IMG/VR virus record: IMGVR_UViG_2698536372_000033
Source of the DNA: a virus
Taxonomy: Duplodnaviria; Heunggongvirae; Uroviricota; Caudoviricetes
Strand: one strand, 5' to 3'
Length of the DNA stretch: 41,555 nucleotides
Made by a program: the position numbers and the translations under genes. A model generated the notes under the pieces. The model saw only the letters and a list, made by a program, of their open reading frames with translations. It was not told where the DNA came from and ran no database searches. Numbering within the stretch: position 1 is the first letter of the stretch; the number at the start of each line of letters is the position of its first letter. Shown in pieces: positions 19,960 to 41,555 of this stretch.

Positions 19960-19982
19960 GGATGAACAGGAGAGCAAAACAG

Positions 19983-20450: not shown

Positions 20451-21078
20451 GGCATTCACCCGCGTGGATGAAACCTTTGAGGCTATCCGCGACAGCCTGA
20501 ATCAGCAGGCCATCAATAACATCGCCAGAAAGCTGGCACAGGATTTACGCCGCGCCCAGCAGGCGCGTATCCGGTCACAGAAAGCGCCGGACGGGACCGC
20601 GTGGACACCACGCAGACGCCGCGTAACCCGGATACAGGAGCGCATTCGCTTTATCTGGAATAACGAAGCACGCACGCTGAAAAACTGGCATCACGACACG
20701 GGGAAATACGGGCGAACCATTACCGGGTGGGATGAGGATAAAAACAATATCCGCACGTTTTACCGGGATGACATCGACCGCTTTCTGGAAATACGCACCC
20801 GGCGCATCAACCAGGACAGCACAAAGCGCGTCCCCATGTTCGTAAAACTGCGCACCGCCCGCTACCTGAAAGCCCGTGCAGATGCTTCCGGTGTGACGGT
20901 GGGTTACAGCGGCGTGGCCGCACGTATTGCCCGCGTTCATCAGTTCGGTGAGCGCGATCAGGTTGCGCCGGGCATTTTCACCGATTACCCGGTACGTGAG
21001 CTGTTGGGCATCAGTCAGGCAGATGAACGCCTGATTTATAACACGGTGCTGGGCCGGATTGCGGAGGCTGTACGGTGA
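20434..21078 (+). CDS. S: Tail completion protein (P2 gpS-like)
   Basis: Overlaps R; synteny; 214 aa. Confidence 0.7.
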   Translation: MKAMDKAFTRVDETFEAIRDSLNQQAINNIARKLAQDLRRAQQARIRSQKAPDGTAWTPRRRRVTRIQERIRFIWNNEARTLKNWHHDTGKYGRTITGWDEDKNNIRTFYRDDIDRFLEIRTRRINQDSTKRVPMFVKLRTARYLKARADASGVTVGYSGVAARIARVHQFGERDQVAPGIFTDYPVRELLGISQADERLIYNTVLGRIAEAVR

Positions 21079-25561: not shown

Positions 25562-25902
25562 TGACATTCAGAATGAGTGAACACTCACGGACCATAAAAA
25601 TTTATAATCTACTGACCGGAACCAATGAGTTTATTGGTGAAGGTGATGCATACATTCCACCTCATACAGGTCTGCCTGCAAACAGTACCGATATTGCCCC
25701 GCCAGATATTCCGGCTGGCTTCGTGGCCGTTTTCAACAGTGATGAGGCATCGTGGCATCTCGTTGAAGACCATCGGGGTAAAACGGTTTATGACGTGGCA
25801 TCAGGGGACTCGTTATTTATTTCTGAACTACGGTGCACCGATTCCGTGGCCATCAGATACCGTTCCGTCTGGTTATGCCCTGATGCAGGGGCAGACTTTT
25901 GA
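25561..25902 (+). pseudogene. Truncated tail fibre assembly chaperone (tfa, copy 1) interrupted by a duplication junction
   Basis: First about 90 codons identical to tfa copies 2-4, then reading frame runs into a second copy of the H 3' region at about 25831. Confidence 0.55.
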
Positions 25903-26434
25903 CAAATCTGCATACCCGAAACTTGCAGTCGCTTATCCGTCAGGCGTTATTCCTGATATGCGTGGCTGGACGATTAAGGGCAAGCCCGGCAGTGGTCGTG
26001 CCGTATTGTCTCAGGAACAGGACGGCATTAAATCGCACACCCACAGCGCCAGCGCATCCAGTACGGATTTGGGGACGAAAACCACATCGTCGTTTGATTA
26101 CGGTACTAAAACGACCAGTTCATTTGATTACGGCACAAAAACTACGAATAGCGCTGGAAATCATTCACACAATATACCTGTTGGTCACACTGGCGCGGGG
26201 AATGGTGTATCAGCCGGTTTTAACGCTGCGTTAGGTACTGGTACCACGTCGAGCGCAGGCGGGCATGCTCACAATGTATATATCGGTGCCCATAACCACA
26301 CTATCGGCATTGGTGCTCATGCCCATTCTGTCATTATTGGTCCCCACGGACACACCATCACCGTTAACGCTACGGGTAACGAAGAAAACACCGTAAAAAA
26401 CATCGCATTTAACTATATTGTGAGGCTTGCATAA
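25833..26434 (+). repeat. Duplicate of H C-terminal tip module (about 600 bp, about 99% identical to 24960-25561) with no start codon of its own
   Basis: Nucleotide repeat read directly; encodes [15 protein letters not shown]...NYIVRLA with only two substitutions (Y to F, E to G). Confidence 0.7.
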
Positions 26435-27006
26435 TGACATTCAGAATGAGTGAACAATCACGGACCATAAAAATTTATAATCTACTGGCTGGAACCAATG
26501 AGTTTATTGGTGAAGGTGATGCATACATTCCACCTCATACAGGTCTGCCTGCAAACAGTACCGATATTGCCCCGCCAGATATTCCGGCTGGCTTCGTGGC
26601 CGTTTTCAACAGTGATGAGGCATCGTGGCATCTCGTTGAAGACCATCGGGGAAAAACCGTCTATGACGTGGCTTCCGGCGACGCGTTATTTATTTCTGAA
26701 CTTGGCCCATTACCGGAAAATGTCACCTGGTTATCCCCGGAAGGGGAGTTTCAGAAGTGGAACGGCACAGCCTGGGTGAAAGATGCAGAAGCAGAAAAAC
26801 TGTTCCGGATCCGGAAGGCGGAAGAAACAAAAAACAGCCTGATGCAGATGGCCAGTGAGCATATTGCGCCACTTCAGGATGCCGTAGATTTGGATATTGC
26901 GACGGAGGAAGAGGCATCGTTACTGACTGCATGGAAGACATATCGGGTATTGTTGAATCGTGTTGATACAACAGTAGCATCGGATGTTGAGTGGCCAGAG
27001 TACTAA
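26434..27006 (+). CDS. Tail fibre assembly chaperone (tfa, copy 2, full length)
   Basis: 190 aa; start overlaps tip stop (ATAATG) as for H-G in P2. Confidence 0.75.
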
Positions 27007-27331
27007 AACGACCAGTTCATTTGATTACGGCACAAAAACTACGAATAGCGCTGGAAATCATTCACACAATATACCTGTTGGTCACACTGGCGCGGGGAAT
27101 GGTGTATCAGCCGGTTATAACGCTGCGTTAGGTACTGGTACCACGTCGAGCGCAGGCGAGCATGCTCACAATGTATATATCGGTGCCCATAACCACACTA
27201 TCGGCATTGGTGCTCATGCCCATTCTGTCATTATTGGTCCCCACGGACACACCATCACCGTTAACGCTACGGGTAACGAAGAAAACACCGTAAAAAACAT
27301 CGCATTTAACTATATTGTGAGGCTTGCATAA
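26996..27331 (+). repeat. Third, shorter copy of the H tip module (from AGTACTAAAACGACC onward)
   Basis: Identical to 25237-25561; begins at the same nucleotide as the tip segment fused into gene 30641-32149. Confidence 0.7.
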
Positions 27332-27909
27332 TGACATTCAGAATGAGTGAACACTCACGGACCATAAAAATTTATAATCTACTGACCGGAACCAATGAGT
27401 TTATTGGTGAAGGTGATGCATACATTCCACCTCATACAGGTCTGCCTGCAAACAGTACCGATATTGCCCCGCCAGATATTCCGGCTGGCTTCGTGGCCGT
27501 TTTCAACAGTGATGAGGCATCGTGGAATCTCGTTGAAGACCATCGGGGAAAAACCGTCTATGACGTGGCTTCCGGCGACGCGTTATTTATTTCTGAACTT
27601 GGCCCATTACCGGAAAATGTCACCTGGTTATCCCCGGAAGGGGAGTTTCAGAAGTGGAACGGCACAGCCTGGGTGAAAGATGCAGAAGCAGAAAAACTGT
27701 TCCGGATCCGGAAGGCGGAAGAAACAAAAAACAGCCTGATGCAGATGGCCAGTGAGCATATTGCGCCACTTCAGGATGCCGTAGATTTGGATATTGCGAC
27801 GGAGGAAGAGGCATCGTTACTGACTGCATGGAAGACATATCGGGTATTGTTGAATCGTGTTGATACAACAGTAGCATCGGATGTTGAGTGGCCAGTCGCC
27901 CCGCAATAA
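27331..27909 (+). CDS. Tail fibre assembly chaperone (tfa, copy 3, full length)
   Basis: 192 aa; near-identical to copy 2. Confidence 0.75.
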
Positions 27910-27916
27910 AAGGATA

Positions 27917-27944
27917 AAGCCATCGATAGAAATATTGATGGCTT
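27917..27944. terminator. Bidirectional hairpin between convergent tfa and acetyltransferase
   Basis: AAGCCATC-N12-GATGGCTT inverted repeat. Confidence 0.45.
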
Positions 27945-27952
27945 CATGTACT

Positions 27953-28525
27953 CTATTTATACAATACAACACCGCTCTTTTTTGTTATATATGTGCAGTT
28001 CGATGGTATATCTTTATTTATAAAAGACATTGCACCTATTTTTACATTATCCCCAATTTTACGTGATAATCCAATGATGCAACAATTAGCTCCGATATCA
28101 ACGTTACTACCAATTTTTACTCTTGAACCAGGCATGTCACCATCTACCTGTCCAATGGTAGTATTCTGTCGCAAAACCAGATTTTCACCAGCATCAACAG
28201 CAAAATGAACAACAATTCCAGTATGATGGGGAATTGTTAAACCTTTTCCAATATTTGCGCCCAATCCAATTTCGCAACCAAATCTGTTAATTATATTATT
28301 GTTTAACTTTCTGGCTGCTTTCTTATGTAATTTATTGCCATTAATATACATTTCATTAGCCAGTCTCCACCAGAAAAGGAAATTCCGATTGCGCTGCTTC
28401 TTCTCTCTTAATAGTCGCCAAACATCCATTTTTTCACGCCTGATGATTTCAGCCATCCAATAGCTCAATAGAGCTTTTGAATTCCCGAAGATGACAAAGT
28501 GAATAGCTATTAAGTAACATAACAT
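27953..28525 (-). CDS. Hexapeptide-repeat acyltransferase, serine O-acetyltransferase (CysE)-like, copy 1
   Basis: 190 aa; GANIGKGLTIPHHTGIVVHFAVDAGENLVL...IGSNVDIGANCCIIG...IGDNVKIGAMSFI matches left-handed beta-helix hexapeptide repeats and the CysE-type GxxIxH region; AT-rich. Confidence 0.75.
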   Translation of the reverse strand: MLCYLIAIHFVIFGNSKALLSYWMAEIIRREKMDVWRLLREKKQRNRNFLFWWRLANEMYINGNKLHKKAARKLNNNIINRFGCEIGLGANIGKGLTIPHHTGIVVHFAVDAGENLVLRQNTTIGQVDGDMPGSRVKIGSNVDIGANCCIIGLSRKIGDNVKIGAMSFINKDIPSNCTYITKKSGVVLYK

Positions 28526-28992
28526 ATTGCAACTGCCTATATTTTTGGGTTTCTATGGTTATATATTGACATTATAATTAAAACAATAATCATCAGTGTG
28601 TTACTGCGTTCCTGCTAAACTAAATCAACGCACAATGTAAACACAAATGTTAATTTTAAACTGAGCGCTAAAGGGATGTCAATATTGTATTGATAATGAG
28701 TTGCAAGATTGCCAACACTTTCTATATTTTTGGATGTAATAATTTATATTTTATCTATTTAGTGTTTCTTTAGACTTATTAAGGATGTCATTATTAATTT
28801 ATGGCTTGCCATTTCTATACATATCTGTTAAAAATTTTGACTTGTTTGTTGAAAATAGATTTAATTGATTGGTTTATTTTTTACATGACGCTCTTTAATA
28901 TAGCTTCAGGTATATATAAGCACAATGCATTATTTCCAGAGGAAATTAACAAAATTGTTAGCTCTTATTTGTTGAGCTTATAGATATTAATT

Positions 28993-29012
28993 AAGGCCCG
29001 ATTCCGGGCCTT
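28993..29012. terminator. Hairpin AAGGCCCG-ATTC-CGGGCCTT with flanking T/A runs (bidirectional terminator-like)
   Basis: Read directly; at the end of the 490-bp AT-rich spacer. Confidence 0.45.
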
Positions 29013-29280
29013 TCCTCATTCCGGCTTTTCGGGAAACGTTACTGGAAGGATGGAGGTATCCGTGGATTCGACTTTCTGCGCATAGAGAATCCACTCGGTT
29101 AATTTTTGTTTACCCTGAACGGAAATAATGCCTAGCCGTAACTGTGAGTCCCAGAGCTGAGTTTTATCCCTGACGAGCTGTAGCAGGCTTTGCTTTTCTT
29201 TTTCCGCTTGTTGTCTTTGCATGACCGGTTGAGAAGTTACTTTGCATACCATTACCTCCTGACAACGTAGGAGGGAACTT

Positions 29281-29610
29281 GTGCTTGACACACAGGAATT
29301 AGCTCCAGTTGCTATTGCGCTCCTGCTTTCAGTAATTGGTGGGATAGGCACGTTCCTGATGGATGTCCGAGACGGTCGCCAGTCTGGCAATTTGTTGGGA
29401 TTGGTTACGGAGATCTTTGTTGCAGTGACAGCTGGCGCGGTGGCGTACCTATTGGGGCAACACGAGGGCTGGGAGTTATCAATTACGTACTTAATGGTAA
29501 CGATAGCCAGCAATAACGGTCATGAGGTGATTTCAGGGATGAAACGAGTGAATATCGATAGCATTCTGAATGTTCTTACAAGTTTGGTGAAAAAGGGAGG
29601 TGGGAAATGA
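29281..29610 (+). CDS. Small two-helix membrane protein (holin-like topology), gene 1 of novel operon
   Basis: 109 aa; GTG start 5 nt after TAGGAGGG; hydrophobic helices LAPVAIALLLSVIGGIGTFLM and IFVAVTAGAVAYLLG; basic C-terminal tail. Confidence 0.5.
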   Translation: MLDTQELAPVAIALLLSVIGGIGTFLMDVRDGRQSGNLLGLVTEIFVAVTAGAVAYLLGQHEGWELSITYLMVTIASNNGHEVISGMKRVNIDSILNVLTSLVKKGGGK

Positions 29611-30050
29611 TTGGCTGGGGTGTATGCGCTCTTGCGTTAGCCTTAGCCGATCGCTATTTGCTAAAACGCAAGGACATCACGCATTTAGAACTTGGTGATG
29701 TGGAAATTAAACCGGGTTTCATCCGGGTGCCGTTCAAATACCGGTCTAAATTCCCGTTTTTGCGCGGCGCAACGGTCAGATATTGGATCCGCGATGTTCA
29801 GAAGCCAACGACAGTGATTGAAGGCGAACAACGTTGTCTGACGTCGGCTGAACAGGGCGAAAACAGTGAATGGTTGTACATACCCACTGAATATATGGGT
29901 AAAGGAGAACGGCTGTGGCATTTCAACGTCATGGTTACGCATGGCGACTCGTTCATTAACCCGTTGTATCGGATTTTCCCTGTTACTCAGCAAATCCGCA
30001 GAAGTTACGTAATAAATCTCGCACAGGATGTGTCAGATGACGAAAAATAA
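29607..30050 (+). CDS. N-terminally membrane-anchored protein of unknown function, gene 2 of novel operon
   Basis: 147 aa; start overlaps previous stop (ATGA); N-terminal hydrophobic MIGWGVCALALALA. Confidence 0.5.
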   Translation: MIGWGVCALALALADRYLLKRKDITHLELGDVEIKPGFIRVPFKYRSKFPFLRGATVRYWIRDVQKPTTVIEGEQRCLTSAEQGENSEWLYIPTEYMGKGERLWHFNVMVTHGDSFINPLYRIFPVTQQIRRSYVINLAQDVSDDEK

Positions 30051-30639
30051 GTATGCAACGGTCGATTTTGACCAGGTTAATGAAAAGGGGCTGAAATCCC
30101 TTATCGCGGCGATCAATAAAACCGGTGTTACGGTAATTGAGGTTGACTCCAGCAACCGCGCAACAACGAAAGATGGCGTTAAAGTTAAAACCGCAAAGCT
30201 GGTTCTTAACGACGGACAAATTCTTGCCATACAGGTAAACGATACTGGCGATATATCGTCTGTGAGGCTGAATGGAAAAGCTATTCCTAACGCTCAGTCG
30301 CCGGATATCAAGACGCTTGGTACCGTCATGGGGCAAGCGGCCCGCAAAAACTCCGCAAAATTCCAGAAATCACTGATCGCCAAAGCGAAACGTGTTGCCA
30401 ATCCGGTAGACAAGAAACCGGCAGTAAAATCCAACTTTCAGCGCCTGCAAGAGGCAAAACAGCGGAATGCTCAGGTGGTTGCCGCTTATAAATCAGCGCA
30501 GAACTCGGTGTCTTTCAATCAACAGCAGATCACTGATTTGCGGGCGAAGCTGGATAAGGAGACAGGCCGACTCAATAACGAAAAGGCCCGAAATGGCGAA
30601 CTCAAACGCCGTCTTAAGCAACTGAAAGCAGGAAATTAA
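30028..30639 (+). CDS. Coiled-coil protein of unknown function, gene 3 of novel operon
   Basis: 203 aa; overlaps gene 2 by 23 nt; contains motif KNSAKFQ then basic/coiled-coil tail; a 23-nt stretch is near-identical to one in gene 4. Confidence 0.5.
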
Positions 30640-30640
30640 C

Positions 30641-32149
30641 ATGGAACAGTTCAATATCAATAAAGGGGTGACGATCAAGCCTGGGCTTGACGTGCTTCCC
30701 CCGCCAGTGACTGATGATGAATATCGCGCATTAATGGCCGGTGAGGACCGCTATCTGATGACGGAATCCAACACCCTGGAGGAAATCGAGGCTACGTTCT
30801 TCTATGACACGCCGATCCACTGGTGTGCTACGGATTTACTGGAGGCGATTAGTTCTACTCGTTTGCAGCTACACCGGACCATGCAGGCATTTGTCCGGGC
30901 ATTGAACCAGAAGCTGAATGGTACCGGAATCTCTGCGGGGAGTGATAAAACGGGGGACGTGGCCCAGAACGGTGCACGCGCGATCGGCGGGGCTGAAATT
31001 GGCCGGGCACGTAACGTTAACGGGCTGCCGGTCCTGCCAGCCATTATTCCGCTCAGTGATGGTCAGACTATCAGCATTCTGTTTCATAGCCCGACAGCGG
31101 AAAACCGGATCACCAATAGCGATACGCTGATTGCTTTCCAGTTCTTACTGAATAAAAAAGACGTTACTCATACCGTTGCTCCGATGAGTGGACGTGATAT
31201 GACGCTGGCGCAGGTCACCATGAAACTTGCCAACCTTGCAGAGAAAAACTCGGCAAAATTCCAGCGTGCGCAGAAGAAGAAAAAAGCCCTGGTTGATGAA
31301 ATAACCCAACTACAGGCTGACAGTGACCAGAAAGAGGATGCCATGAGCGACCTCGCGGATCAGGTGGCAGCGGTAGAAGGGCAGAAGGTAGATCTGGAGC
31401 AGAAAATTAACGCTGTTGCATCGGAAGCGGATTCTCTTTATGAAGAGAATGAGCGTTTGCAGACGGAGATTGATCAGCTCAATCGAACTGGTGGGCGCGA
31501 AACCATTGCTCCTGCGGGGATGACTGGTAGACACTCTCGCGCGATGACGGATCGCCTTGCAAGTATCAAAAATCGTATGCATATGAACGGGGAAGTGACG
31601 CTCAGTAATGGTGCATCAATGAAGCAATTCATTGAGGACGGTGAAGGGTATATCCAGTTAACCGATTCGGATGGCAGCGTGTACATGATCAAGGCTAAAT
31701 CCATACAGGGTGTGGACATGGCAGATGCGATCGGCAAGCTGTTTAAAGCCTATAAAGCGGGTAATGTATCGGAATATCTGGTCCAACCAGAAGAACATAA
31801 ACCGGAAAACGTCGAAAGTACTAAAACGACCAGTTCATTTGATTACGGCACAAAAACTACGAATAGCGCTGGAAATCATTCACACAATATACCTGTTGGT
31901 CACACTGGCGCGGGGAATGGTGTATCAGCCGGTTATAACGCTGCGTTAGGTACTGGTACCACGTCGAGCGCAGGCGAGCATGCTCACAATGTATATATCG
32001 GTGCCCATAACCACACTATCGGCATTGGTGCTCATGCCCATTCTGTCATTATTGGTCCCCACGGACACACCATCACCGTTAACGCTACGGGTAACGAAGA
32101 AAACACCGTAAAAAACATCGCATTTAACTATATTGTGAGGCTTGCATAA
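30641..32149 (+). CDS. Chimeric protein: novel 390-aa N-terminal region (with coiled-coil) fused to the tail-fibre His-rich tip module, gene 4 of novel operon
   Basis: 502 aa; start 2 nt after gene 3 stop; last 115 aa ([10 protein letters not shown]...NYIVRLA) identical to the H tip from the AGTACTAAAACG breakpoint; followed by a tfa copy. Confidence 0.6.
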
Positions 32150-32728
32150 TGACATTCAGAATGAGTGAACACTCACGGACCATAAAAATTTATAATCTAC
32201 TGACCGGAACCAATGAGTTTATTGGTGAAGGTGATGCATACATTCCACCTCATACAGGTCTGCCTGCAAACAGTACCGATATTGCCCCGCCAGATATTCC
32301 GGCTGGCTTCGTGGCCGTTTTCAACAGTGATGAGGCATCGTGGCATCTCGTTGAAGACCATCGGGGTAAAACGGTTTATGACGTGGCATCAGGGGACTCG
32401 TTATTTATTTCTGAACTCGGTCCATTACCGGAAAATGTTACCTGGTTGTCGCCGTATGGAGAGTATCAGAAGTGGAACGGCACATCCTGGGTGAAAGATG
32501 CAGAAGCAGAAAAACTGTTTCGGATAAGGGAGGCGGAAGAAACAAAAAAACAGCCTGATGCAGGTAGCCAGCGAGCATATTGCGCCACTTCAGGATGCCG
32601 TAGATTTGGATATTGCAACGGAGGAAGAGGCATCGTTACTGGCTGCATGGAAGACATACCGGGTATTGTTGAATCGTGTTAATACAGCGGTAGCAGCGGA
32701 TGTTGAGTGGCCAGTCGCCCCACAATAA
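32149..32728 (+). pseudogene. Tail fibre assembly chaperone (tfa, copy 4) with +1 frameshift in an A7 run
   Basis: A7 at about 32550-32556 versus A6 in copies 2 and 3; ORF terminates early at 32682 while the shifted frame continues to the normal stop at 32726-32728. Confidence 0.55.
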
Positions 32729-32734
32729 AGAGAA

Positions 32735-32764
32735 AAAGCCATCGATTGAAATATAGATGGCTTT
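32735..32764. terminator. Bidirectional hairpin between convergent tfa copy 4 and acetyltransferase copy 2
   Basis: AAAGCCATC-N12-GATGGCTTT inverted repeat, paralogous to 27917-27944. Confidence 0.45.
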
Positions 32765-32771
32765 ATGTACT

Positions 32772-33377
32772 CTATTTATACAATACAACACCGCTCTTTT
32801 TAGTTATATATGTGCAGTTCGATGGTATATCTTTATTTATAAAAGACATTGCACCTATTTTTACATTATCCCCAATTTTACGTGATAATCCAATGATGCA
32901 ACAATTAGCTCCGATATCAACGTTACTACCAATTTTTACTCTTGAACCAGGCATGTCACCATCTATCTGTCCAATGGTAGTATTCTGTCGTAACACCAGA
33001 TTTTCACCAGCATCAACAGCAAAATGAACAACAATTCCAGCATGATGGGGAATTGTTAACCCTTTTCCAATATTTGCGCCCAATCCAATTTCACAACCAA
33101 ATTTGTTAATTATTTTACTGTTTAACTTTTTGGCTGCTTTCTTATGTAATTTATTACCATTAATATACATTTCGTTAGCCAACCGCCACCAGAAAAGGAA
33201 ATTCCGGTTACGCTGTTTTTTCTCTCTTAAAAGCCTCCAGATATCCATACGTTTCCGCCGAATTACTTCATATTTCCAGAAGTTTTTTAAATTAGTAGAG
33301 TCCCCAAATAAAACAAAGTGAATTGCCATTAAGTAAGACAGCACGATAATCTCCTTAATTATTATTTCAGACCACAC
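32772..33377 (-). CDS. Hexapeptide-repeat acyltransferase, serine O-acetyltransferase (CysE)-like, copy 2
   Basis: 201 aa; same architecture as copy 1 but clearly diverged in sequence (many substitutions), unlike the near-identical fibre-tip copies. Confidence 0.75.
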   Translation of the reverse strand: MWSEIIIKEIIVLSYLMAIHFVLFGDSTNLKNFWKYEVIRRKRMDIWRLLREKKQRNRNFLFWWRLANEMYINGNKLHKKAAKKLNSKIINKFGCEIGLGANIGKGLTIPHHAGIVVHFAVDAGENLVLRQNTTIGQIDGDMPGSRVKIGSNVDIGANCCIIGLSRKIGDNVKIGAMSFINKDIPSNCTYITKKSGVVLYK

Positions 33378-33500
33378 ATATTATAAGGTTAAGAGATTAT
33401 AAAATCCTGTTGTTTGTTATTCAAAAACAATTTTCTGAGAAGGACATACAACAGCAAGTCGCCAGTCACCTTCATCAGGAAATTGGCGACATACGTTAAA

Positions 33501-33995
33501 TCAGAGCAGCCCCTTAACTGAGCTGGTCGCGCTATTAAGGGATGATGTCACCTTATCTTTGAAGCCGGACAACATATCGCTGAACGATGAGGATTGCAGG
33601 CGCTCCCGCAAATCCTCATCACAGCGTTCAAGAGTCAGTGAAAATTCTATCTTTTTCGACTTACCGTAGCGATCAAACTCGGAGCGGGTCGTATTCGTTT
33701 CGGTCAGGACATACATGCCGTAAATCTGCCCGACGCCATCAATCAGAGGCCAGGGCCGTCCTGTATACGCCTGCGTGGTCAGCAGAGACAGCGACACTTC
33801 GCCACCTGTAATTTCAGGATAAAGCACACCAGAAAGAACGATGCGATCATCACCTGCACCGATATACTGCCAGCTTGCTGAACGGTTAACGCGTTCATTT
33901 TTCACATGCCGCCAGCTTTTGTTTTGCTGTAACTGCTGATGCGGCAGCGTGCGCAGCTCAAAAACAAACATGCCATAGATCATCATCATGGCCAT
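33501..33995 (-). CDS. U: Tail protein (P2 gpU-like)
   Basis: 164 aa (P2 U 159 aa); immediately downstream of tape measure gene on the minus strand. Confidence 0.8.
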   Translation of the reverse strand: MAMMMIYGMFVFELRTLPHQQLQQNKSWRHVKNERVNRSASWQYIGAGDDRIVLSGVLYPEITGGEVSLSLLTTQAYTGRPWPLIDGVGQIYGMYVLTETNTTRSEFDRYGKSKKIEFSLTLERCDEDLRERLQSSSFSDMLSGFKDKVTSSLNSATSSVKGLL

Positions 33996-34001
33996 GACTC
34001 C

Positions 34002-36845
34002 TCAATCTTTATCGTAAAAACTGCCACGCCCGGCACGGGCGCGCCGTTCCATTTCTGCCCTGACCATTTCACCGACCAGTTTCGCCAGTTCGCGGGGATT
34101 CTGCGTAACAACGTTATGCAGATGAACATGAATTTCACCGCCAAATCTGGAGACAGCAGGCTCCCGATTACGGGAAGCTGCAGGAACTGATGCCACTGGC
34201 GATCGTATGGCCTCCGCCACCGGGCGGGAGCTGGCCGCAACAACAGGGACCAGCGCCGGAGGCAGCGGAGCCGGGACTACGGGTGTGATATTAATTGCGG
34301 GGGCAGGCTTACTGACCTGCGCAATCTTCCGCTCCTGCCACTCCCCACGAACAGCAAGTGCGCGGGGCAGGTTCTTAAAGACAATATCGCCAGGGCCAAT
34401 GCGTTTTTTCGTCTCATCAACCAGCTTACCTGTGTTATCAGCAATTTTGCTGAGTCTGCGTAGCGTCCCGGTATTGCTGTCTGTGAGCGGTTTGTTGTCT
34501 TTGGGTTTATCACCTCCGGTGCCATTGCCATTTTCCACAGGCTTCGGCGGATTGATTTTCGCCAGGTCCCCCTGAAGTAAGGCAACCTTATCCTGAAGAA
34601 TGGCCGCACGCTGTGCGTCTTCGATTTTCTTGCGCGCCCTTTCCGCTTCATCCGGAAGGACGCCAAGTTTTTCAAGTATCCACGCCAGCGTATCCAGTAG
34701 CATTTTTGCAGGTGTCAGAACAAGTTGTAACGCACCGCCAAGAACGTTACCGAATATCTCGCCAGCACTGGTACATTTATCCAACGTTTCCTTGCTGGAC
34801 TCCATCGGTGACAGCAGCGATTTAAACCAGTTAAACACCTGGCTGATCCCGCTTCCGATTGCGTCAAAAACAGGGCCAAACCGTTCAAAGGTTTCACGCA
34901 ACGGGTTCAGCCTTTCCATAATCCCGCTGAACACCCCGGCAAAAAATGCCCTGATGGGATCCCAGTATTTCCAGATAAGGACGGCAGCTCCGGCAAGCGC
35001 AGCCACGATAAGACCAACCGGACTGAACAGCGCCCCGATAGCGCCTCCCAGTAAAGAAACGGAACCCGTCACCATTCCCCATAGTGCTGGCAGGACCCTG
35101 ACAGCATTCATTGATCCGGTCAGGAGAGAAAAACCAAGACGCAGTTTTGCCAGCGGACCAGCAAGCACACCAATAGCCAGCGACAACGAGCCAACCGTTG
35201 CAGTCATTGCCAGCAACGCACCGCCTGCTATCAGTAGCTGGCGCGTCAGTGCCGGATGGGCCTGCGCCAGCGCCGTCACCCTTGATACCACCCGCGTGAG
35301 CCACTGCGTGACAGAACGCAGCGGACCGTCAATCAGATCTGCAATGCGGATGCGCAACCCTTCCCATGCACTGCCGAGTGATTTCAGATCGCCGTCAAGG
35401 TTGTTGGCCATAACCTTTGCTGTGCGTTCAGCCTCACCGCGCGCGCCTTCAAGTTCTTTTCTCAGTTTGGGTAAGGAACCGTCACCCACTGCATCAACGA
35501 GCGCCATAAACGATGTGAAAGCCTCTTCTCCGGCAATGTCCTTAAAGAACGATACCCGGTCAACTTCCCCGTATTTGCGGGTGGCTTTATAAAGGTCGGC
35601 CAGCACATCCTCCATCGGGCGCATTTTACCCCCGGCATCCGAGACGGACACGCCCAGCTCTTTCAGAGCTTCTGCCGCCGCCTTTGGCGGTGATGCCAGA
35701 CGAGCCAGGCTGGCACGCATTGCCGTCCCGGCATCACTCCCTCTGATGCCCATATTCGCCAGCACACCAGCCATCGCTGCGGCCTGCTCCAGCGATATTC
35801 CCAGCTTACCCGCCACCGGACCTGCATATTTCATGGTTTCGCCCAGTGCGCGAAGGTCAGTGTTGGTACGGGTAAACGCTGCGGTGAGTGTGTCACCGAC
35901 CCGGTCCATCTGGTCAGCAGAAAGGCCGAACTGCGTCAGGATATTTGAGCCAATATCTGCCGTCTCGCCGAGATCCATACCGCCAGCCGTTGCCATGCTC
36001 AGCACTCCGGGAAGCGCAGCCTGAATGGCCTGCGGTGTGAAGCCTGCCATTGCAAGAAATGCCTGCCCACTGGCGGCATCGCCTGCGGTGAACTGCGTTT
36101 CAGAGCCAAGTTTTAACGCCTGCTCACGCAGCGCCTTAAACTGCGGGCTGTTCTGGTCGATTCGCGTCAGCGCCTGAACGCGGGACATCTCTTTGCCGAA
36201 CCCGATCGCGGGCTGCAAAAAACGCCCGGCAGCATAGCCGCCCGCCGCTGCCGCACCAATTGCCAGCGCACCACCTGTTTTCAGTTTTCCCGCGGTTTCC
36301 TGCGCGCGCGAATACCACTTACGCGCCCGCGTTACACGCGCAAGCGCCTGCCGTTCGCGTTCAAGCTGGTTGTTGTACTGTTCGGTGCGTCTGATGGCCT
36401 GCTGGATGGTGTTATCGCTGCCTGTCAGGGAAATGCCGTGGCGTTTCAGCTCTCCGCCAAGCTCCCGCATTTTCTGAATTTCCCGTGTGCGCGATTCATT
36501 CAGGCGTTCAAGCCGGGTGCTTAACTGCTGCATCAGCTTTTGTTGTTTTTCGCTGAGCACTGTACCCGTGCGTTGTAACTGATTAAGGGCGTTAAGCTGG
36601 CGTCGTGCTTTCACGATACCCGCATCCGCTTTACTGACAGCGTCGCGGGCGCGCTCAAATGAACGAGCCTGACGCTCGAGATTTTTAATCGCCCCCTGCG
36701 TTCGCTGGATGGAGTCACCAAACTGCCCCATCAGGCGGCGGGCGTTTTCGGCAGGCCGGGTCAGCCTGTCAACGGCGCTGAAAGCGACCCGGATATCAAG
36801 AGTCTTCATTGTCTGCATTCCCGCTGCGAAGTGCCGCCCGCTCAC
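34002..36845 (-). CDS. T: Tail tape measure protein (P2 gpT-like)
   Basis: 947 aa; long helical N-terminal half, Gly/Ala-rich hydrophobic central segments; follows E/E'. Confidence 0.85.
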   Translation of the reverse strand: MSGRHFAAGMQTMKTLDIRVAFSAVDRLTRPAENARRLMGQFGDSIQRTQGAIKNLERQARSFERARDAVSKADAGIVKARRQLNALNQLQRTGTVLSEKQQKLMQQLSTRLERLNESRTREIQKMRELGGELKRHGISLTGSDNTIQQAIRRTEQYNNQLERERQALARVTRARKWYSRAQETAGKLKTGGALAIGAAAAGGYAAGRFLQPAIGFGKEMSRVQALTRIDQNSPQFKALREQALKLGSETQFTAGDAASGQAFLAMAGFTPQAIQAALPGVLSMATAGGMDLGETADIGSNILTQFGLSADQMDRVGDTLTAAFTRTNTDLRALGETMKYAGPVAGKLGISLEQAAAMAGVLANMGIRGSDAGTAMRASLARLASPPKAAAEALKELGVSVSDAGGKMRPMEDVLADLYKATRKYGEVDRVSFFKDIAGEEAFTSFMALVDAVGDGSLPKLRKELEGARGEAERTAKVMANNLDGDLKSLGSAWEGLRIRIADLIDGPLRSVTQWLTRVVSRVTALAQAHPALTRQLLIAGGALLAMTATVGSLSLAIGVLAGPLAKLRLGFSLLTGSMNAVRVLPALWGMVTGSVSLLGGAIGALFSPVGLIVAALAGAAVLIWKYWDPIRAFFAGVFSGIMERLNPLRETFERFGPVFDAIGSGISQVFNWFKSLLSPMESSKETLDKCTSAGEIFGNVLGGALQLVLTPAKMLLDTLAWILEKLGVLPDEAERARKKIEDAQRAAILQDKVALLQGDLAKINPPKPVENGNGTGGDKPKDNKPLTDSNTGTLRRLSKIADNTGKLVDETKKRIGPGDIVFKNLPRALAVRGEWQERKIAQVSKPAPAINITPVVPAPLPPALVPVVAASSRPVAEAIRSPVASVPAASRNREPAVSRFGGEIHVHLHNVVTQNPRELAKLVGEMVRAEMERRARAGRGSFYDKD

Positions 36846-37325
36846 GCCAGCTAACCACTTCGCCGGGCGTCATCATGAAGATTTCGGCGGGCGACCAGTT
36901 AAAAATAACGGCAATATCTGCCACAAAGTCTTCTATGTGCTCAAAGCACACAACCGTGATCAGGCTTCCGTCGCCTGTTCGTTCTTCCCGCCAGAGTCCG
37001 CACCGCTCAAAAAATTTACGGCAACCACACATAACTGAATAAAGTCACGGGATGCCATTTTTTTGATCGTCACTTCATCCAGTCGCGGTGATGTCACGCG
37101 TGACAGCAGCGTAAACATGGATTCCGCTTTCAGATTCAGCACATCAGACAGCGACAAATCTCGCAGAGATCCAGCCTGCTCAATAGCCCCGGTGATCTCC
37201 ACATACGTGATTTTTTCGCCGCCTCGCTCAATTGGTTGGGTAAGTTTTACACCACGCTCACTGGTTTCTTTCACAGTGTCAGCAACTACCGTGTTTTCGG
37301 TATCGATGTTTTTCGTCTCTTTCAT
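36796..37325 (-). CDS. E: Tail assembly chaperones E and E' (E' made by programmed -1 frameshift)
   Basis: E ORF 36960-37325; slippery heptamer T-TTT-TTG on minus strand (plus coords 37008-37014) links to the -1 frame ORF ending at 36796. Confidence 0.8.
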
Positions 37326-37379
37326 CAGGAAACTCCTTTCAGTCAGAGGCGACGCACTGCGCCGCCTGCATATTACTTA

Positions 37380-37892
37380 TCAGCCAAGCCCGAGCGCGGA
37401 ACGGATGCGATCGGGCACAATGTCCTTGCCGTCCTTCCGGTAAATGAAGTTCAGCAGGTCAATCTCCCACAACGGGCGATCGTTAACACTCAGCTTGTAG
37501 TAGGTGTTTTTAATGGCGTAAGTGTGTGATGTGGCTTCGCCCTGTTTGGCTTCCCCCATATCAATTTCCGTCACACGTCCGCGCATTTCGACTTCATACA
37601 GGTCGCTTTCTGCATCGGTGTAATATTCACCCGCAAAACGCAGCAGCGTGCCGTCAATCGTGCCGCCATACTTAAGGAACAGCTCACGAACTGCGCCCCC
37701 CATGACAAAGCTCGCATCAAGCGCGGAGTCGTCCAGACCGAGATCAATACTTACCGCACCCATCATGCCACCACCCCGGTAGCTGTCGGTTTTGCGCGTC
37801 AGCTTAGGCAGAGTGACGGACGTCACCTTACCCACTTCGTTTTCACCATCCACAAACAGCGTAAAAAAGCGAAGATGTTTTGGTACAGCCAT
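37380..37892 (-). CDS. FII: Tail tube protein (P2 gpFII-like)
   Basis: 170 aa (P2 FII 172 aa); synteny downstream of sheath. Confidence 0.85.
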   Translation of the reverse strand: MAVPKHLRFFTLFVDGENEVGKVTSVTLPKLTRKTDSYRGGGMMGAVSIDLGLDDSALDASFVMGGAVRELFLKYGGTIDGTLLRFAGEYYTDAESDLYEVEMRGRVTEIDMGEAKQGEATSHTYAIKNTYYKLSVNDRPLWEIDLLNFIYRKDGKDIVPDRIRSALGLG

Positions 37893-39076
37893 CAGGCACC
37901 TCCCAGCACCGCAAATGCGGGTTCAAAGTATTCATCAGTAAACGTCTGGTAAAGCTCCATGTCTTCCAGTGGCGGAACGGGCGTATATTTGTAGCGAATA
38001 CGCACACGCCCCTGACGTAAATCCGTGGTGCTGTTATCCACCACGTCATACCAGCACTCCGCGCCAATCAGTTTCCCGGCAGTAACCAGCGAATCCAGTT
38101 TTGCCCTGATGGCACTGATAACATCCTTCACGTTCGCAGGCGTCAGTGGACTGTCGATGGTTTCAAACTGCGCTTCCGCAATTGAATCAGCCAGCACCTG
38201 TGCGGTTCGGGTATACACCTCAAAGATGTAGGCGTTCGTTTCCGGTGTGCGGTTGCCCCAGAAGCGGAACCCGTTGCGACGAATAATGGTCGTGATTTCT
38301 TTGTTGTTGAGGCTGTTGGCATCACTGTCTTCGGCCTGCAACGACCAGAAAACATGCCTGGACATCCCCAGCACATTTTTAACAGGAACGTTGGACAGCG
38401 ATTTGTGCCAGCCCTGCTCATGGTCAATGTACGCACGAAGGCCGCACGCATAGGCAGGCGCGGGGAACGTTTCGTTTTTGCCACTTTTCGGGTTGTAGGC
38501 GATGAAGTCCGGCCATAAGAGCATCACCTCACGTTCGTTGAATTTCTGGCGGTAGGTAATTGCCTCAGCCATCGTGTTACAGTCATGACATGAGGCATAC
38601 ACAAACGCGCGCAGTTTACCCGCAATCACGCACAGGGATTTTGTCACCGCCTCCGTGTCCAGCTCCGGCGCGGCCAGAATACGCGGACGGTATCCGATGC
38701 TTTCATCCTGCTCTGCAACAAGCAGCGCATACATCCCCGTATAGCTGCCGTCAGATTCAGAACCACCGATAACCAGTTGATCCTGCGTCTTACCGCCTTC
38801 TTCTTTGTGTTCAGCCACGCGAACGACGATCACTTTTGTGCTCACCTGGTCTGCAATAGCCTTAAGCGCACGATAAAGCGTCCCCGTAGTCCCGCATTTT
38901 CCCAGCACGTCATTGACGCGGGTCAGCAGTGTGGGCTTGTTCAGCGGGAACAGCTCCGCGTCCGCATCATCCGCCGTTGCCACGATACCGATAACACTGG
39001 AATCAACATCATTAATCGCTGTTACCAGGTCGGTACTTTCCGTAACACGGGCACCATGAAAACGAGTTTCACTCAT
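37892..39076 (-). CDS. FI: Contractile tail sheath protein (P2 gpFI-like)
   Basis: 394 aa; FPLNKP, LRAF.Y, QGWHKTLSNV, RRNGFRFWGNRT, YTRTAQV, YTPVPPLE blocks match recalled P2 FI. Confidence 0.9.
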   Translation of the reverse strand: MSETRFHGARVTESTDLVTAINDVDSSVIGIVATADDADAELFPLNKPTLLTRVNDVLGKCGTTGTLYRALKAIADQVSTKVIVVRVAEHKEEGGKTQDQLVIGGSESDGSYTGMYALLVAEQDESIGYRPRILAAPELDTEAVTKSLCVIAGKLRAFVYASCHDCNTMAEAITYRQKFNEREVMLLWPDFIAYNPKSGKNETFPAPAYACGLRAYIDHEQGWHKSLSNVPVKNVLGMSRHVFWSLQAEDSDANSLNNKEITTIIRRNGFRFWGNRTPETNAYIFEVYTRTAQVLADSIAEAQFETIDSPLTPANVKDVISAIRAKLDSLVTAGKLIGAECWYDVVDNSTTDLRQGRVRIRYKYTPVPPLEDMELYQTFTDEYFEPAFAVLGGA

Positions 39077-39233
39077 AGCTTCAGCCCCTTGTATCCGTTA
39101 AATGATTCGGCAACAATCATCACCCACCACGCGCGTAATCTCACCCCTGCGCCGTTCTCCCGCCACGGCGACAACAAAAAGCAGTAACCCCCTATGCACG
39201 CACATGCGACCATGCCGCACAGGGAGGGAACAG
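39077..39233. promoter_or_regulatory. Divergent intergenic region between inverted sheath operon and gene D (must contain promoters for both)
   Basis: Inferred from gene orientation only. Confidence 0.35.
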
Positions 39234-40334
39234 ATGACCGATACCACCATGCAATTGCTCAGTCAGAGCACAGACCCCGTGAAAATGCCGGATTTTGATA
39301 TTCTCGCGGAGGGGGAAACACTGTCCGGCGTGGCAGAGCGCCTGATGAGCCTGTCACTGACCGACAACCGGGGATTTGAAGCGGACCTGCTCACCATCAC
39401 GCTGGATGATGCGGATGGTCAGTTGCAGCTACCGCCACGGGGCGCGCGCCTGACGGTTCTCATTGGCTGGAAAGGAGAACCGCTGACAGAAAAAGGCACT
39501 TACATTGTTGATGAAATCGCTCACGAAGGACCGCCGGACAGGCTGACTGTTTCAGCCAGAAGCGCAGATTTTCGGGATGAATTTAACGTTAAACGTGAGG
39601 TGTCCTGGCATGATGTGACCGTTGAGCGCGTGGTATCCGCCATCGCTCATCGGTACGGTCTGAAACCACAAATCAGCGAAATGCTGATGGATATTGAAAT
39701 CGACCACGCCGACCAGACCGAAGAAAGCGACATGTCCTTCCTTACGCGCATGGCGGAAATGCTGGGCGCAATCACTACGGTAAAAAGCAGTAATCTGTTA
39801 TTCATCATGCCAGGCGGTGGCGTGAACGCACAGGGCCAGCCGTTGCCATCGTTCGCCATCACGCGCAGCAGTGGCGATCGCCATCAGTTCCGCATTGCTG
39901 ACCGCGAAGCGTATACGGGGGTACGTGCTTACTGGCTTGATCTTAATTACGGGAAAAAGAAAAAAGTCAGCGTGAAACGCCGCAAACCGAAAAAGGAGAA
40001 AAGCAGCAGCCGTGAAGGTGACTATATGGAAGGTGCGGAAGGCAACGTGTTTGTGTTACGCAAGACTTATCAGAACGAGCAGGCAGCAAGACGTGCAGCG
40101 GCGGCAAAGTGGCAGCAGCTACAACGCGGAGCCGCATCATTCTCCATCACGCTGGCGCGTGGACGCGCAGAACTCTATCCCGAAATGCATGGCACGGTGA
40201 CAGGCTTCAAAAGTGACATCGATAATCAGGACTGGATTATTGCAAAAGCCGAGCACACCATTGATAACAGCGGCTTTACCACACAGCTTGAGCTTGAAGC
40301 AAAAATCCCGGAATGGATAGCAGAAACAGAATGA
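39234..40334 (+). CDS. D: Tail protein D (P2 gpD-like)
   Basis: ATG 39234 after AGGGAGGG; 366 aa (P2 D 387 aa); position at the right end of the tail cluster. Confidence 0.8.
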   Translation: MTDTTMQLLSQSTDPVKMPDFDILAEGETLSGVAERLMSLSLTDNRGFEADLLTITLDDADGQLQLPPRGARLTVLIGWKGEPLTEKGTYIVDEIAHEGPPDRLTVSARSADFRDEFNVKREVSWHDVTVERVVSAIAHRYGLKPQISEMLMDIEIDHADQTEESDMSFLTRMAEMLGAITTVKSSNLLFIMPGGGVNAQGQPLPSFAITRSSGDRHQFRIADREAYTGVRAYWLDLNYGKKKKVSVKRRKPKKEKSSSREGDYMEGAEGNVFVLRKTYQNEQAARRAAAAKWQQLQRGAASFSITLARGRAELYPEMHGTVTGFKSDIDNQDWIIAKAEHTIDNSGFTTQLELEAKIPEWIAETE

Positions 40335-40733
40335 GCAAATTAGATGTATTGACTCAAACCAGAACTGACACACTCACAGCACAGTGCCAGACCCAATCTG
40401 GCAGCCCGCTTTGTGCCTAGAGCAGGTGTTGCTTATGTAACAGTTAATCCACGGATAGTGGTCATGAATGCTGGTTGAAGTTGTATTGCCATGAGTGGTC
40501 AATTAGGGACTCACTTATTATCGCGTGCTCACCATTGATGGGTAAGATCATGCATTTCGGCTACTGTACTTCGCGAATCCTCCGCACACAGGCAACACCT
40601 GATTTAAGAACAGAGGGAGATGATGACGCAAGGAAGATTTATTATCGTGCATGTGGCAGATGATCTTTTAGCTGCCGGAGTGATAAATTACACCTATTTT
40701 CGATAAGTGTTTTTGTTATAGAACATTAATTTC

Positions 40734-41555
40734 GTGGGAAACAATAAAGTGAAATTAGGAAGAAATGATAAGTGCTGGTGTAATTCAGGACTTAAGTATA
40801 AAAAGTGCCATCTTGGTCGAGATCGTGAAACTCCGGTATCCAAAGCCGAGGCACTGAAATTTTCAAAGTCTCTCTCGCAGAGAAAGGCATGTTATGCGCC
40901 AGCATCCATGCACGAAGATTGTGATAAACGCATCGTTCAGGCGCATACGATATCTAAGAGCAGTAGCCTTAAGGCGATCGCCGACTCCAGCAATCACGTC
41001 ATGGGGGTGATAATGAACTTAGCAAGCCTGATGAGAAACAACGGAAAATGGCTTCCCGAGAAGATCGGTATCAATCAGGCATCCACTTTTACAGGATTTT
41101 GTGCAGTTCATGACAGAATCTTATTTTCATGCCTAGAGAACGAAAAATTTACAGGCACGGACGAGCAGTGCTTTGCCTTAATGTTTCGTTCATTGTCTAA
41201 AGAAATTTATGCCAAAGAAGGGGGAGTGCTATCTTCTGATTTTGCTAAAAATGCCGATAAAGGAAAGCTACAAGTTGAACAGTATTATATTCAGAAATTA
41301 ATCGACCAGCACCAAAGTGGCTTAAATGCAGCAATAATTGAATTAAATAATCTTAAAACTAGCCTCGACCGCATCCTACTTAGCAGGCAATTTTCAGAAA
41401 TTGAAAGTGTTATCTTCACTTTTGCAGAGCCTTTACCAATTGTAGTTTCGTCAATTCTTTCACCGGAGAGGGATTTCGATGGGACCAAAATTCAGGATTT
41501 GAGCGATCTGAGGTGTACTGGCAATAGCGGACACTACCATTTGTTCTTTTTTTAA
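40734..41555 (+). CDS. SEC-C metal-binding motif protein of unknown function (AT-rich, at or beyond prophage right end)
   Basis: 273 aa; N-terminal CWCNSGLKYKKCH matches the SecA C-terminal zinc-binding (SEC-C) motif; GTG start with weak RBS; stop is the last codon of the window. Confidence 0.5.
   Translation: MGNNKVKLGRNDKCWCNSGLKYKKCHLGRDRETPVSKAEALKFSKSLSQRKACYAPASMHEDCDKRIVQAHTISKSSSLKAIADSSNHVMGVIMNLASLMRNNGKWLPEKIGINQASTFTGFCAVHDRILFSCLENEKFTGTDEQCFALMFRSLSKEIYAKEGGVLSSDFAKNADKGKLQVEQYYIQKLIDQHQSGLNAAIIELNNLKTSLDRILLSRQFSEIESVIFTFAEPLPIVVSSILSPERDFDGTKIQDLSDLRCTGNSGHYHLFFF

Follow-up and report, generated by a model that had tools for sequence, protein, structure and literature searches.

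In the 41,555-nucleotide stretch of DNA analyzed here (IMG/VR record IMGVR_UViG_2698536372_000033, hereafter the window), the P2-like tail genes FI, FII, E/E', T, and U form a reversed block on the minus strand (33501-39076, 5,576 bp), between the fibre/cargo region and gene D on the plus strand (39234-40334). An earlier sequence-only reading took this as the outcome of a 5.6-kb inversion. Did the block invert in this genome or was the layout inherited, and from where is D transcribed once it is cut off from U? The reversed layout is very probably the standard inherited arrangement of a subclade of Peduoviridae (P2-like phages), with nothing inverting today. Overall, it is an ordinary trait that matters little.

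Gene content and strands of the tail block

Pfam and PHROGs matches bear out that U, T, E/E', FII, and FI are minus-strand genes flanked by the fibre/cargo region and a plus-strand D. The features of the block and its left flank are as follows.

32772-33377, minus strand: hexapeptide-repeat (serine O-acetyltransferase-like) cargo gene, copy 2 (weak PF00132; phrog_2154, E = 1.7e-87)
33456-33491, minus strand: hairpin GUCGCCA...UGGCGAC with a moderately U-rich tail (RNA fold -23.9 kcal/mol, z = -3.9)
33501-33995, minus strand: gpU-like tail protein (PF06995 Phage_P2_GpU, E = 2.9e-38; phrog_76)
34002-36845, minus strand: gpT tape measure (PF10145, E = 3.7e-58; phrog_28)
36796-37325, minus strand: E/E', the -1 frameshift extension of gpE reaching 36796 (sequence reading)
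36960-37325, minus strand: gpE (phrog_103, E = 3e-35; the RefSeq 'GpE family' ORF)
37380-37892, minus strand: gpFII tail tube (PF04985 Phage_tube, E = 7.5e-47)
37892-39076, minus strand: gpFI tail sheath (PF04984, PF22671, PF17482; phrog_23, E = 1.7e-127)
39234-40334, plus strand: gpD baseplate hub / late control D protein (PF05954, E = 8e-18; phrog_52, E = 1.4e-162)

These genes make up a complete P2-like (Peduoviridae) contractile tail module, with homologues of FI, FII, T, gpU, and gpD whose Pfam scores are all above the cut-offs. The reversed operon opens with FI and closes with U (RefSeq, in annotating strain 11368, starts U at 33989 and T at 36809). The operon is intact, including the tail chaperone pair E and E+E': a P2-type slippery heptamer, T_TTT_TTG, lies in the E frame at 37014-37008, upstream of T, and from it the -1 frame is open to a TGA at 36796, overlapping the start of T at 36809. 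D, which is transcribed away from FI, had been correctly assigned to the plus strand; its start is 39234, rather than 39233 or 39102. A 410-aa ORF from 39102 was considered as D and rejected, as the start at 39234 agrees with P88 and RefSeq and has a Shine-Dalgarno-like GGGAGGG ahead of it (39222-39228). The resulting protein of 366 aa has the length of P88 D.

On the left, acetyltransferase copy 2 follows U immediately and shares its strand, as had been noticed from the sequence; E. coli O26:H11 strain 11368 has this arrangement natively. A promoter scan gives the gene its own sigma-70-like promoter (TTGAAT-17-TATAAT, 33424-33396). The hairpin directly after the U stop codon may be a weak terminator of the reversed operon, judging from its predicted fold, and it belongs to the cargo side because homology to P88 stops at 33495. 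The conserved unit runs from 33495 to 40344 and adjoins variable cargo loci on either side. The fibre/cargo region just left of the block is visibly rearranged in the window, and the junctions of region 25561-31817 are present in no complete genome; this region, with a darA/fibre junction at ~31817, may be either a true recombinant of P1 plasmid and P2 prophage or a chimera of the assembly. When the YecA-like protein, the acetyltransferase, a DUF6645 protein, and Ogr were run through PADLOC, the output held only weak SEC-C-motif matches and no defence assignment.

Distribution and origin of the reversed layout

A probe for the FI/D junction was covered over at least 80% of its length in 1,389 of 5,426 complete E. 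coli genomes, or about one quarter, and these genomes carry the same layout at 95-100% identity. A synthetic P2-type junction leading from U into D, which looks for the other orientation in the population, was covered in none of the 1,411 E. coli genomes carrying these genes. We compared 80 species-representative loci sorted by sheath identity: at 56% or above, all 18, from other Enterobacterales genera, are reversed, and at 51% or below, all 62 have the canonical, P2-like order, which is also that of SopEPhi. The reversed loci are monophyletic in neighbour-joining trees of both FI and D. The subclade comprises Xuanwuvirus/P88, Senquatrovirus/SEN4, and their kin in Serratia, Kosakonia, Morganella, Pectobacterium, Xenorhabdus, Yersinia, and Citrobacter, with Klebsiella relatives counted in by sheath similarity only. 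The departure from P2 gene order, with FI through U on the minus strand and J, H, and D on the plus strand, is a defining trait of this subclade and not a fault of this genome.

Because the layout is fixed in the lineage and identical in the viable phages P88 and SEN4, it is not a strain-specific inversion. The 5.6-kb inversion proposed from the sequence is accurate as a comparison with P2 and wrong as an event of this genome or strain; a lineage that always has this arrangement, which that reading had itself named as what would refute it, is what P88, SEN4, and all 18 related loci display. Comparison with P2 and related prophages, one of the checks it had suggested, finds the reversed layout clade-wide. 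The intergenic regions 33378-33500 and 39077-39233 are not fresh breakpoints either, given the same layout in P88, SEN4, and the 1,389 E. coli genomes.

Three readings would make the reversal recent or artificial. The first, that the block inverted recently in this genome or strain and broke in those two intergenic regions, would account for the reversed order relative to P2 and would fit with the rearranged fibre/cargo region to the left of the block; it has a vanishingly small probability, since the layout recurs at high identity in independently isolated phages as well as in E. coli chromosomes and extends across genera, the alternative junction is absent from all 1,411 genomes, and the FI/D spacer holds a conserved regulatory dyad rather than a scar. 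Hardly more credible is a programmed segment flipped by a serine invertase of the Gin/Cin/Pin type. P88 does encode a DNA invertase immediately beside U, and the fibres of P2-like phages often sit on invertible segments, but the window has no such gene (the best tblastn match of the P88 invertase has E = 7.9, and the neighbours are hexapeptide acetyltransferases), SEN4 has the layout without any invertase, and a single orientation occurs in the 1,411 genomes. The earlier reading had seen no inverted repeats at the breakpoints, and rightly: among the 25 longest of 66 inverted-repeat pairs in 33000-39600, none links 33378-33500 to 39077-39233, as crossover sites at the block ends should. Flipping would also detach FI from its promoter, or attach D to one, in ways that are not viable. 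An assembly artefact in the form of a mis-oriented contig join is the least credible of all: the unmatched junctions in 25561-31817 do suggest that the window may have assembly problems elsewhere, but 31818-41509 is collinear at ~100% identity with many independent finished O26, O103, and other chromosomes, and the tail block agrees with phage genomes.

How the lineage acquired its layout is a separate matter. We infer that an ancestor of the subclade underwent an inversion in place, in which pF-FI-FII-E/E'-T-U would have been turned around as one unit while D and ogr kept their former orientation. Alternatively, a heterologous pF-FI...U cassette from another contractile-tail phage may have been inserted in reverse in an ancient mosaic replacement. 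With protein identities of only 45-56%, the two histories are indistinguishable. The mosaic reading draws on the mere 45% identity of FI to P2 FI and on the ends of the unit, which abut cargo loci where recombination is frequent. Yet D, which lies outside the block, gives exactly the same clade as the FI tree, the pF dyad is at the ancestral distance from FI, the cassette has the gene content and E/E' frameshift of P2, and no donor lineage with a closer sheath was found among the 80 loci. Replacement therefore seems quite improbable. An in-place inversion would have left FI-FII-E/E'-T-U to be read leftwards from the old pF, with its Ogr-type dyad travelling along with the block, and the leftward operon and V-W-J-I-H-G would be transcribed towards each other from opposite sides of the variable cargo locus.

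The FI/D spacer and transcription of D

D no longer has its translational and transcriptional coupling to U if this history is right, and the sequence-only reading had remarked that D would need its own promoter. We agree: transcription of D must arise within the FI/D spacer, and D probably has its own promoter there. Three features bear on this question.

39077-39233, no strand: divergent FI/D spacer, 157 bp (sequence; alignment of 12 divergent spacers)
39154-39175, plus strand: GTTCT-N12-ACAAC dyad, a candidate Ogr-type activator site (spacer alignment, motif scans)
13178-13199, plus strand: identical GTTCT-N12-ACAAC dyad in the P/O (terminase/scaffold) divergent late spacer (motif match)

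Late promoters of the Ogr/Delta/B type carry TGT-N12-ACA centred ~55 nt upstream of the transcription start and ~80 nt upstream of the first ATG. The FI/D dyad has this form with one deviating half (TCT for TGT; the core TCT-N12-ACA is at 39156-39173), and relatives carry the exact TGT-N12-ACA at the aligned spacer position. No other element of the spacer is as strongly conserved among 12 aligned divergent spacers from ~10 genera, and motif scans found the dyad in 17 of 17 reversed-type loci as well as in the locus L021. It lies midway between the two genes, its centre 88.5 nt from the start codon of FI and 69.5 nt from that of D; across genera, the spacer keeps its length and the dyad its place at the centre. 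In the reversed loci, the centre is 74.5-88.5 nt from the FI ATG and ~68-85 nt from the D ATG, with varying leader lengths. The distance to FI fits the 82.5 nt of P2 pF and the 79.5-84.5 nt of 19 canonical loci.

The exact extended motif, with 10 specified bases, occurs three times in the window against an expectation of 0.06. The copy in the P/O spacer serves as this phage's reference for a late-promoter site; its centre is 73.5 nt from the ATG of P and, with the start taken from P88, 81.5 nt from that of O. The third copy falls within T (34724-34745), where one would expect no promoter, and so the motif by itself is no proof of function. This copy could be a late promoter within T for the transcription of U and of the acetyltransferase after it; we rejected it as a promoter for its unconvincing downstream -10 region and its lack of conservation outside Xuanwuvirus. 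A search of the window for exact TGT-N12-ACA returned two matches, neither within a late spacer, and missed the FI/D site because the Xuanwuvirus site has TCT on one half. We dropped this null result as a case against Ogr-type sites once the multi-genus spacer alignment had revealed the TCT half.

The prophage of strain 11368, identical to this one, carries an ogr/Delta-like zinc finger gene after D and a YecA-family gene, beyond the right end of the window. From the sequence comparisons, we infer that this phage's Ogr binds the dyad and that the dyad drives promoters in both directions. D would then most likely be read rightwards from a second activator-dependent promoter on the other face of the dyad that serves FI, making the FI/D spacer a pair of back-to-back activator-dependent late promoters. 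Alternatively, the dyad could serve FI only, with D read from a promoter independent of it, either constitutive or responsive to another factor. The weak putative -10 on the D side (GCGACC) and the short and variable distance from the dyad centre to the D ATG speak for this possibility, but the promoter scan found no sigma-70 consensus promoter in the spacer, and the conserved spacer length and central dyad are as in P2 pP/pO, with its single site for both promoters; an independent promoter for D is on the whole unlikely. As for how a shared site might have arisen, we tentatively suggest promoter capture: the ancestral inversion may have set D back-to-back with pF, and the dyad symmetry of the Ogr site may have allowed it to become a second bidirectional late promoter. 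If so, the hub protein D would have a dosage and a timing no longer tied to those of the sheath and tube genes, and the convergent operons would form a transcriptional pocket sheltering a cargo hotspot.

P88, SEN4, and P2 as points of comparison

Recognizing the layout as inherited guards against reporting it as a structural variant or mobile inversion when it is normal for the lineage. It also means that P2 is not safe as a synteny reference for every member of Peduoviridae, since the operon from the sheath to U is reversed in a multi-genus subclade of Enterobacterales phages, and annotation or "intactness" tools that expect P2 order could misjudge such prophages. The layout is visible in deposited annotations only: we found no explicit description of the reversed operon, nor any remark on its orientation, in the P88 paper, a 2026 survey of P2-like diversity, the P2 phylogeny of Nilsson, the papers on SEN4 and Citrobacter PhiSM, and two papers on tailocins. 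P88, PhiSM, and SEN4 are viable phages (PMC5285337, PMC6456863, PMC5261728).

The closest known relative is P88 (Xuanwuvirus P88, Peduoviridae; NC_026014 / KP063541), with 97.1% nucleotide identity to 33495-40344 and the same order and strands, U-T-E'-E-FII-FI on minus and D on plus. The remaining core genome is collinear at ~96%; in local blastn, collinear blocks of 87-97% identity to P88 cover 24.7 kb of the window, with gaps at cargo or fibre regions. The tail block aligns as a single collinear piece to P88 and other Xuanwuvirus-type records, or as two where IS100 has inserted. The window represents a prophage of the P88-like type (Xuanwuvirus) from O26-type E. coli. It differs from P88 in its cargo: P88 has an invertible fibre segment, a DNA invertase adjoining U where the window has the acetyltransferase, and a hok-like gene after D where the window has the YecA/SEC-C gene. 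Salmonella phage SEN4 (Senquatrovirus, Peduoviridae; NC_029015) has the same reversed FI-U block and divergent D, with like TGT-N12-ACA dyads in both its FI/D and P/O spacers. SEN4 differs in having neither invertase nor acetyltransferase, an ogr on the opposite strand after D, and a sheath ~56% identical to that of the window (55% by protein alignment, 55.9% by tblastn).

In P2, the order is H-G-fun(Z)-FI-FII-E-T-U-D-ogr, which the sequence-only reading had described as co-directional; this is true of all but fun(Z). The P2 F operon (pF-FI-FII-E-E'-T-U-D) shares with the window its genes, at ~45% protein identity, and the E/E' -1 frameshift heptamer, and has an activator dyad of the same type ~82 nt upstream of FI; in P2, too, D is followed by ogr. 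It differs in that D overlaps the U stop codon, and in that the F operon, D included, is co-directional with H-G, whereas in the window FI-U is reversed and D stands alone. The closer likeness to the FI/D spacer is P2 pP/pO, where a single annotated activator site serves divergent promoters with transcription starts 111 bp apart; in both, back-to-back late operons lie ~150-175 bp apart around one central dyad. The FI/D spacer thus resembles a second copy of the pP/pO-type shared-activator architecture, which P2 has at P/O only and of which the P88 clade would have a putative second instance at FI/D.

A reversed tail block in a P88-like prophage

According to the ORF map and family searches, the window is a complete P2-like prophage. 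From the integrase on the far left it runs through replication gene A, Q/P (divergent from O/N/M/L), the lysis genes, and R/S/V/W/J/I/H to the tail genes. By megablast it belongs to O26-type STEC chromosomes of E. coli, and 32700-41509 is ~100% identical to many finished genomes, including that of O26:H11 strain 11368. Escherichia phage P88, a Xuanwuvirus in the family Peduoviridae, comes nearest among phages and is collinear with the window at 87-97% identity over 24.7 kb in local blastn, with breaks confined to the cargo and fibre regions. Pfam and PHROG families bear out all gene identities and strands named in the sequence-only reading:

32772-33377, minus strand: acetyltransferase, following U
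33501-33995, minus strand: U (PF06995)
34002-36845, minus strand: T (PF10145; annotated start 36809)
36960-37325, minus strand: E (phrog_103)
37380-37892, minus strand: FII (PF04985)
37892-39076, minus strand: FI (sheath domains)
39077-39233: divergent FI/D spacer, 157 bp
39234 onward, plus strand: D (PF05954; 366 aa)

The P2 record runs H, G, fun(Z) (minus strand), pF, FI, FII, E/E', T, U, D, and ogr, with D overlapping the U stop. Relative to this order U-T-E/E'-FII-FI is reversed over 5,576 bp, as that reading had proposed, and acetyltransferase copy 2 does lie directly downstream of U on the same strand. D starts at 39234, in agreement with P88 and RefSeq, and not at 39102 or 39233. The programmed -1 frameshift of E/E' is intact, with the heptamer T_TTT_TTG read in the E frame at 37014-37008 and no stop in the -1 frame before the TGA at 36796.

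One inherited rearrangement

P88, a viable and annotated phage, has the same layout (a plus-strand invertase, minus-strand U, T, E', E, FII, and FI, and a plus-strand D, in that order), and that of Salmonella phage SEN4, from a different genus, is identical to the window's, whereas P2 and the Felsduovirus SopEPhi follow the canonical order. A sheath-profile scan of one genome per bacterial species gave 80 loci, in which J, FI, FII, T, U, and D were placed by tblastn. In all 18 loci whose sheath reaches or exceeds 56% identity to that of the window (Salmonella, Serratia, Kosakonia, Enterobacter, Yokenella, Morganella, Pectobacterium, Xenorhabdus, Citrobacter, Yersinia, and Chania), D lies upstream of FI and diverges from it, and J lies downstream of U and converges on it. 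All 62 loci with a sheath at most 51% identical, Burkholderia, Pseudomonas, Acinetobacter, Stenotrophomonas, and Shewanella among them, are in P2 order. Neighbour-joining trees were built for FI, which belongs to the block, and for D, which does not; in both, the reversed loci make up a single clade free of canonical members.

A recent inversion belonging to this strain is contradicted: the FI/D junction (a 757-bp probe across the divergent junction, coverage at least 80%) is present in 1,389 of 5,426 complete E. coli genomes, and the P2-type join, sought with a synthetic junction of the last 400 nt of U and the first 400 nt of D, occurs in 0 of the 1,411 holding both halves. The missing join also speaks against a programmed invertible segment, which we consider extremely improbable: a search of the window with the P88 invertase found no invertase (best E = 7.9), and among the 25 longest of 66 inverted-repeat pairs none links the two block ends, in agreement with the earlier failure to see such repeats at the breakpoints. 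Given the match to finished genomes, the probability of an assembly error in the tail block is negligible. At this divergence, an old exchange of the cassette for one inserted backwards keeps a small probability; a simple inversion is favoured by the agreement between the FI and D clades and by the conserved pF geometry. Since the layout is shared by named phages, E. coli genomes, and all 18 loci, and falls in one clade in the trees, the rearrangement is one old event passed down to the entire subclade; an arrangement constant throughout the lineage is what the sequence-only reading had named as refuting its inversion. Every distant lineage has the canonical order, which points to the reversed state as derived.

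Some individual records deserve comment. One locus (L006, NZ_JBQPOM010000071.1), labelled Vagococcus sp. WN89Y, a Gram-positive, has a prophage tail block of this E. coli type, 98% identical in protein sequence, and the same assembly holds a second P2-like locus (L070); this assembly is probably contaminated or mislabelled. The reversed-type layout is also found in Pectobacterium, Xenorhabdus, and Kosakonia loci (L014-L019, L009-L011, and L020), genera with P2-like R-type tailocins (carotovoricin, xenorhabdicin, and kosakonicin). For the Xuanwuvirus-type phages 520873 (NC_049344.1) and 503458 (NC_049341.1), the tail-block match is in two pieces with IS100 (IS21 family) annotated beneath; tail sheath and tape measure are each annotated twice in the 520873 record, a sign that a gene may be interrupted, and both prophages may be tail-defective.

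The FI/D spacer as a candidate promoter pair

Because U no longer leads into D, D is out of reach of transcription from U and, as the sequence-only reading anticipated, needs a promoter of its own, which must be within the 157-bp spacer. A promoter scan found no sigma-70 consensus promoter there, as expected because P2-family late promoters depend on an Ogr-type activator, a dependence that the P2 record annotates as well. The identical prophage in strain 11368 has an ogr-family gene downstream of D, a short way past the window end. When the spacers of 12 divergent clade members are aligned (mean column identity 47%), the sole sharply conserved element is T[G/C]T-N9-G-N2-ACA, the TGT-N12-ACA dyad of P2-family late promoters. 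Its extended form, GTTCT-N12-ACAAC, has three exact matches in the window (0.06 expected), two of them in spacers:

13178-13199: P/O-spacer dyad, extended motif identical to the FI/D copy
39154-39175: FI/D dyad, from the spacer alignment

The FI/D and P/O spacers of SEN4 likewise hold a matching pair. The FI/D dyad is mid-spacer, ~68-85 nt from the D ATG, and across the 17 reversed-type loci scanned its centre always falls 74.5-88.5 nt from the FI ATG; the corresponding distance is 82.5 nt at P2 pF and 79.5-84.5 nt in 19 canonical loci with an exact dyad. This likeness indicates that the FI/D dyad is the old pF activator site, carried along with the block. In the P2 record, a single activator site serves the divergent pP and pO, whose transcription starts are 111 bp apart. 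From this precedent and from the conservation and position of the dyad, we infer that the FI/D spacer would be a second back-to-back late promoter pair, with the activator binding one dyad that serves both genes and starts predicted near 39109 (FI) and near 39220 (D). It is somewhat unlikely that D is instead transcribed from a dyad-independent promoter.

The third exact copy (34724-34745, minus strand) is inside the T coding sequence, ~720 nt before the stop; it is kept in P88, has one mismatch in two close relatives, and is missing from more distant clade members, and we found no convincing -10 element downstream of it. A degenerate dyad, TGT-N12-AGG, at 21002-21019 within the 3' end of S has its centre 79.5 nt ahead of the V start annotated in RefSeq (21090). 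Clearer dyads, GTTGT...ACA(A/G)C, occupy the aligned position before V in relatives from Kosakonia, Pectobacterium, and Yersinia. The degenerate one may be the pV site embedded in coding sequence, as only 11 nt part S and V.

Cargo regions and known relatives

Homology to P88 in the tail unit begins at 33495, six bases beyond the stop of U, and ends at 40344, ten bases beyond that of D. On the left P88 has an invertase where the window has the acetyltransferase, and on the right a hok-like gene where the window has a YecA/SEC-C gene. The intervals 33378-33500 and 39077-39233, at first read as inversion breakpoints, are cargo junctions and a regulatory spacer rather than fresh breaks. U is followed by a stable hairpin (-23.9 kcal/mol, z = -3.9), beyond which a sigma-70-like promoter (TTGAAT-17-TATAAT, 33424-33396) precedes the acetyltransferase; the latter is thus a typical cargo gene with its own promoter, although late read-through might also reach it. 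The YecA-family/SEC-C-motif gene between D and ogr (40345-41555, running past the window; 379 aa in strain 11368) is cut by the window end and has only weak SEC-C-motif matches in PADLOC. The window stops short of this prophage's ogr, of a hok/gef gene, and of the attR side beside tRNA-Leu/Cys/Gly genes. Between the lysis genes and R, a 625-aa DUF6645 gene (18082-19959), whose protein has no PADLOC match, is another late-region cargo insertion; P88 lacks a counterpart, its homology breaking at 18029-20025.

In the fibre region, the strain 11368 prophage has H, tfa, one acetyltransferase, and U, whereas the window has, in 25561-31817, two extra tandem units of a fibre C-terminus and tail-fibre assembly gene and a stretch of plasmid-prophage type. 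The repeat copies here are ~98% identical:

25229-25528: repeat copy
26102-26401: repeat copy
26999-27298: repeat copy
31817-32116: repeat copy

The plasmid-prophage stretch, some 4 kb long, matches P1-like plasmid prophages from O26 strains in collinear order and comprises tfa, acetyltransferase copy 1, lydA holin, lydB, a DarA-related gene, and darA. At ~31817 darA is cut short and joined to a fibre C-terminus, a junction absent from all complete E. coli genomes searched; chromosomal homology restarts at 31818. Either this is a genuine recombinant between a P1 plasmid and a P2 prophage, or the assembly is chimeric through the shared repeats.

The literature searched contains no published remark on the reversed orientation, and the shared-dyad promoter model would be only mildly new. 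KSP20, PhiSM, and Klebsiella phages were matched by similarity alone. Phage genomes that are deposited, annotated, and classified by ICTV show the reversed layout (P88 and other Xuanwuvirus records, and SEN4); the window's block is an ordinary member of this P88/SEN4-type lineage, and so we count its layout as already known.
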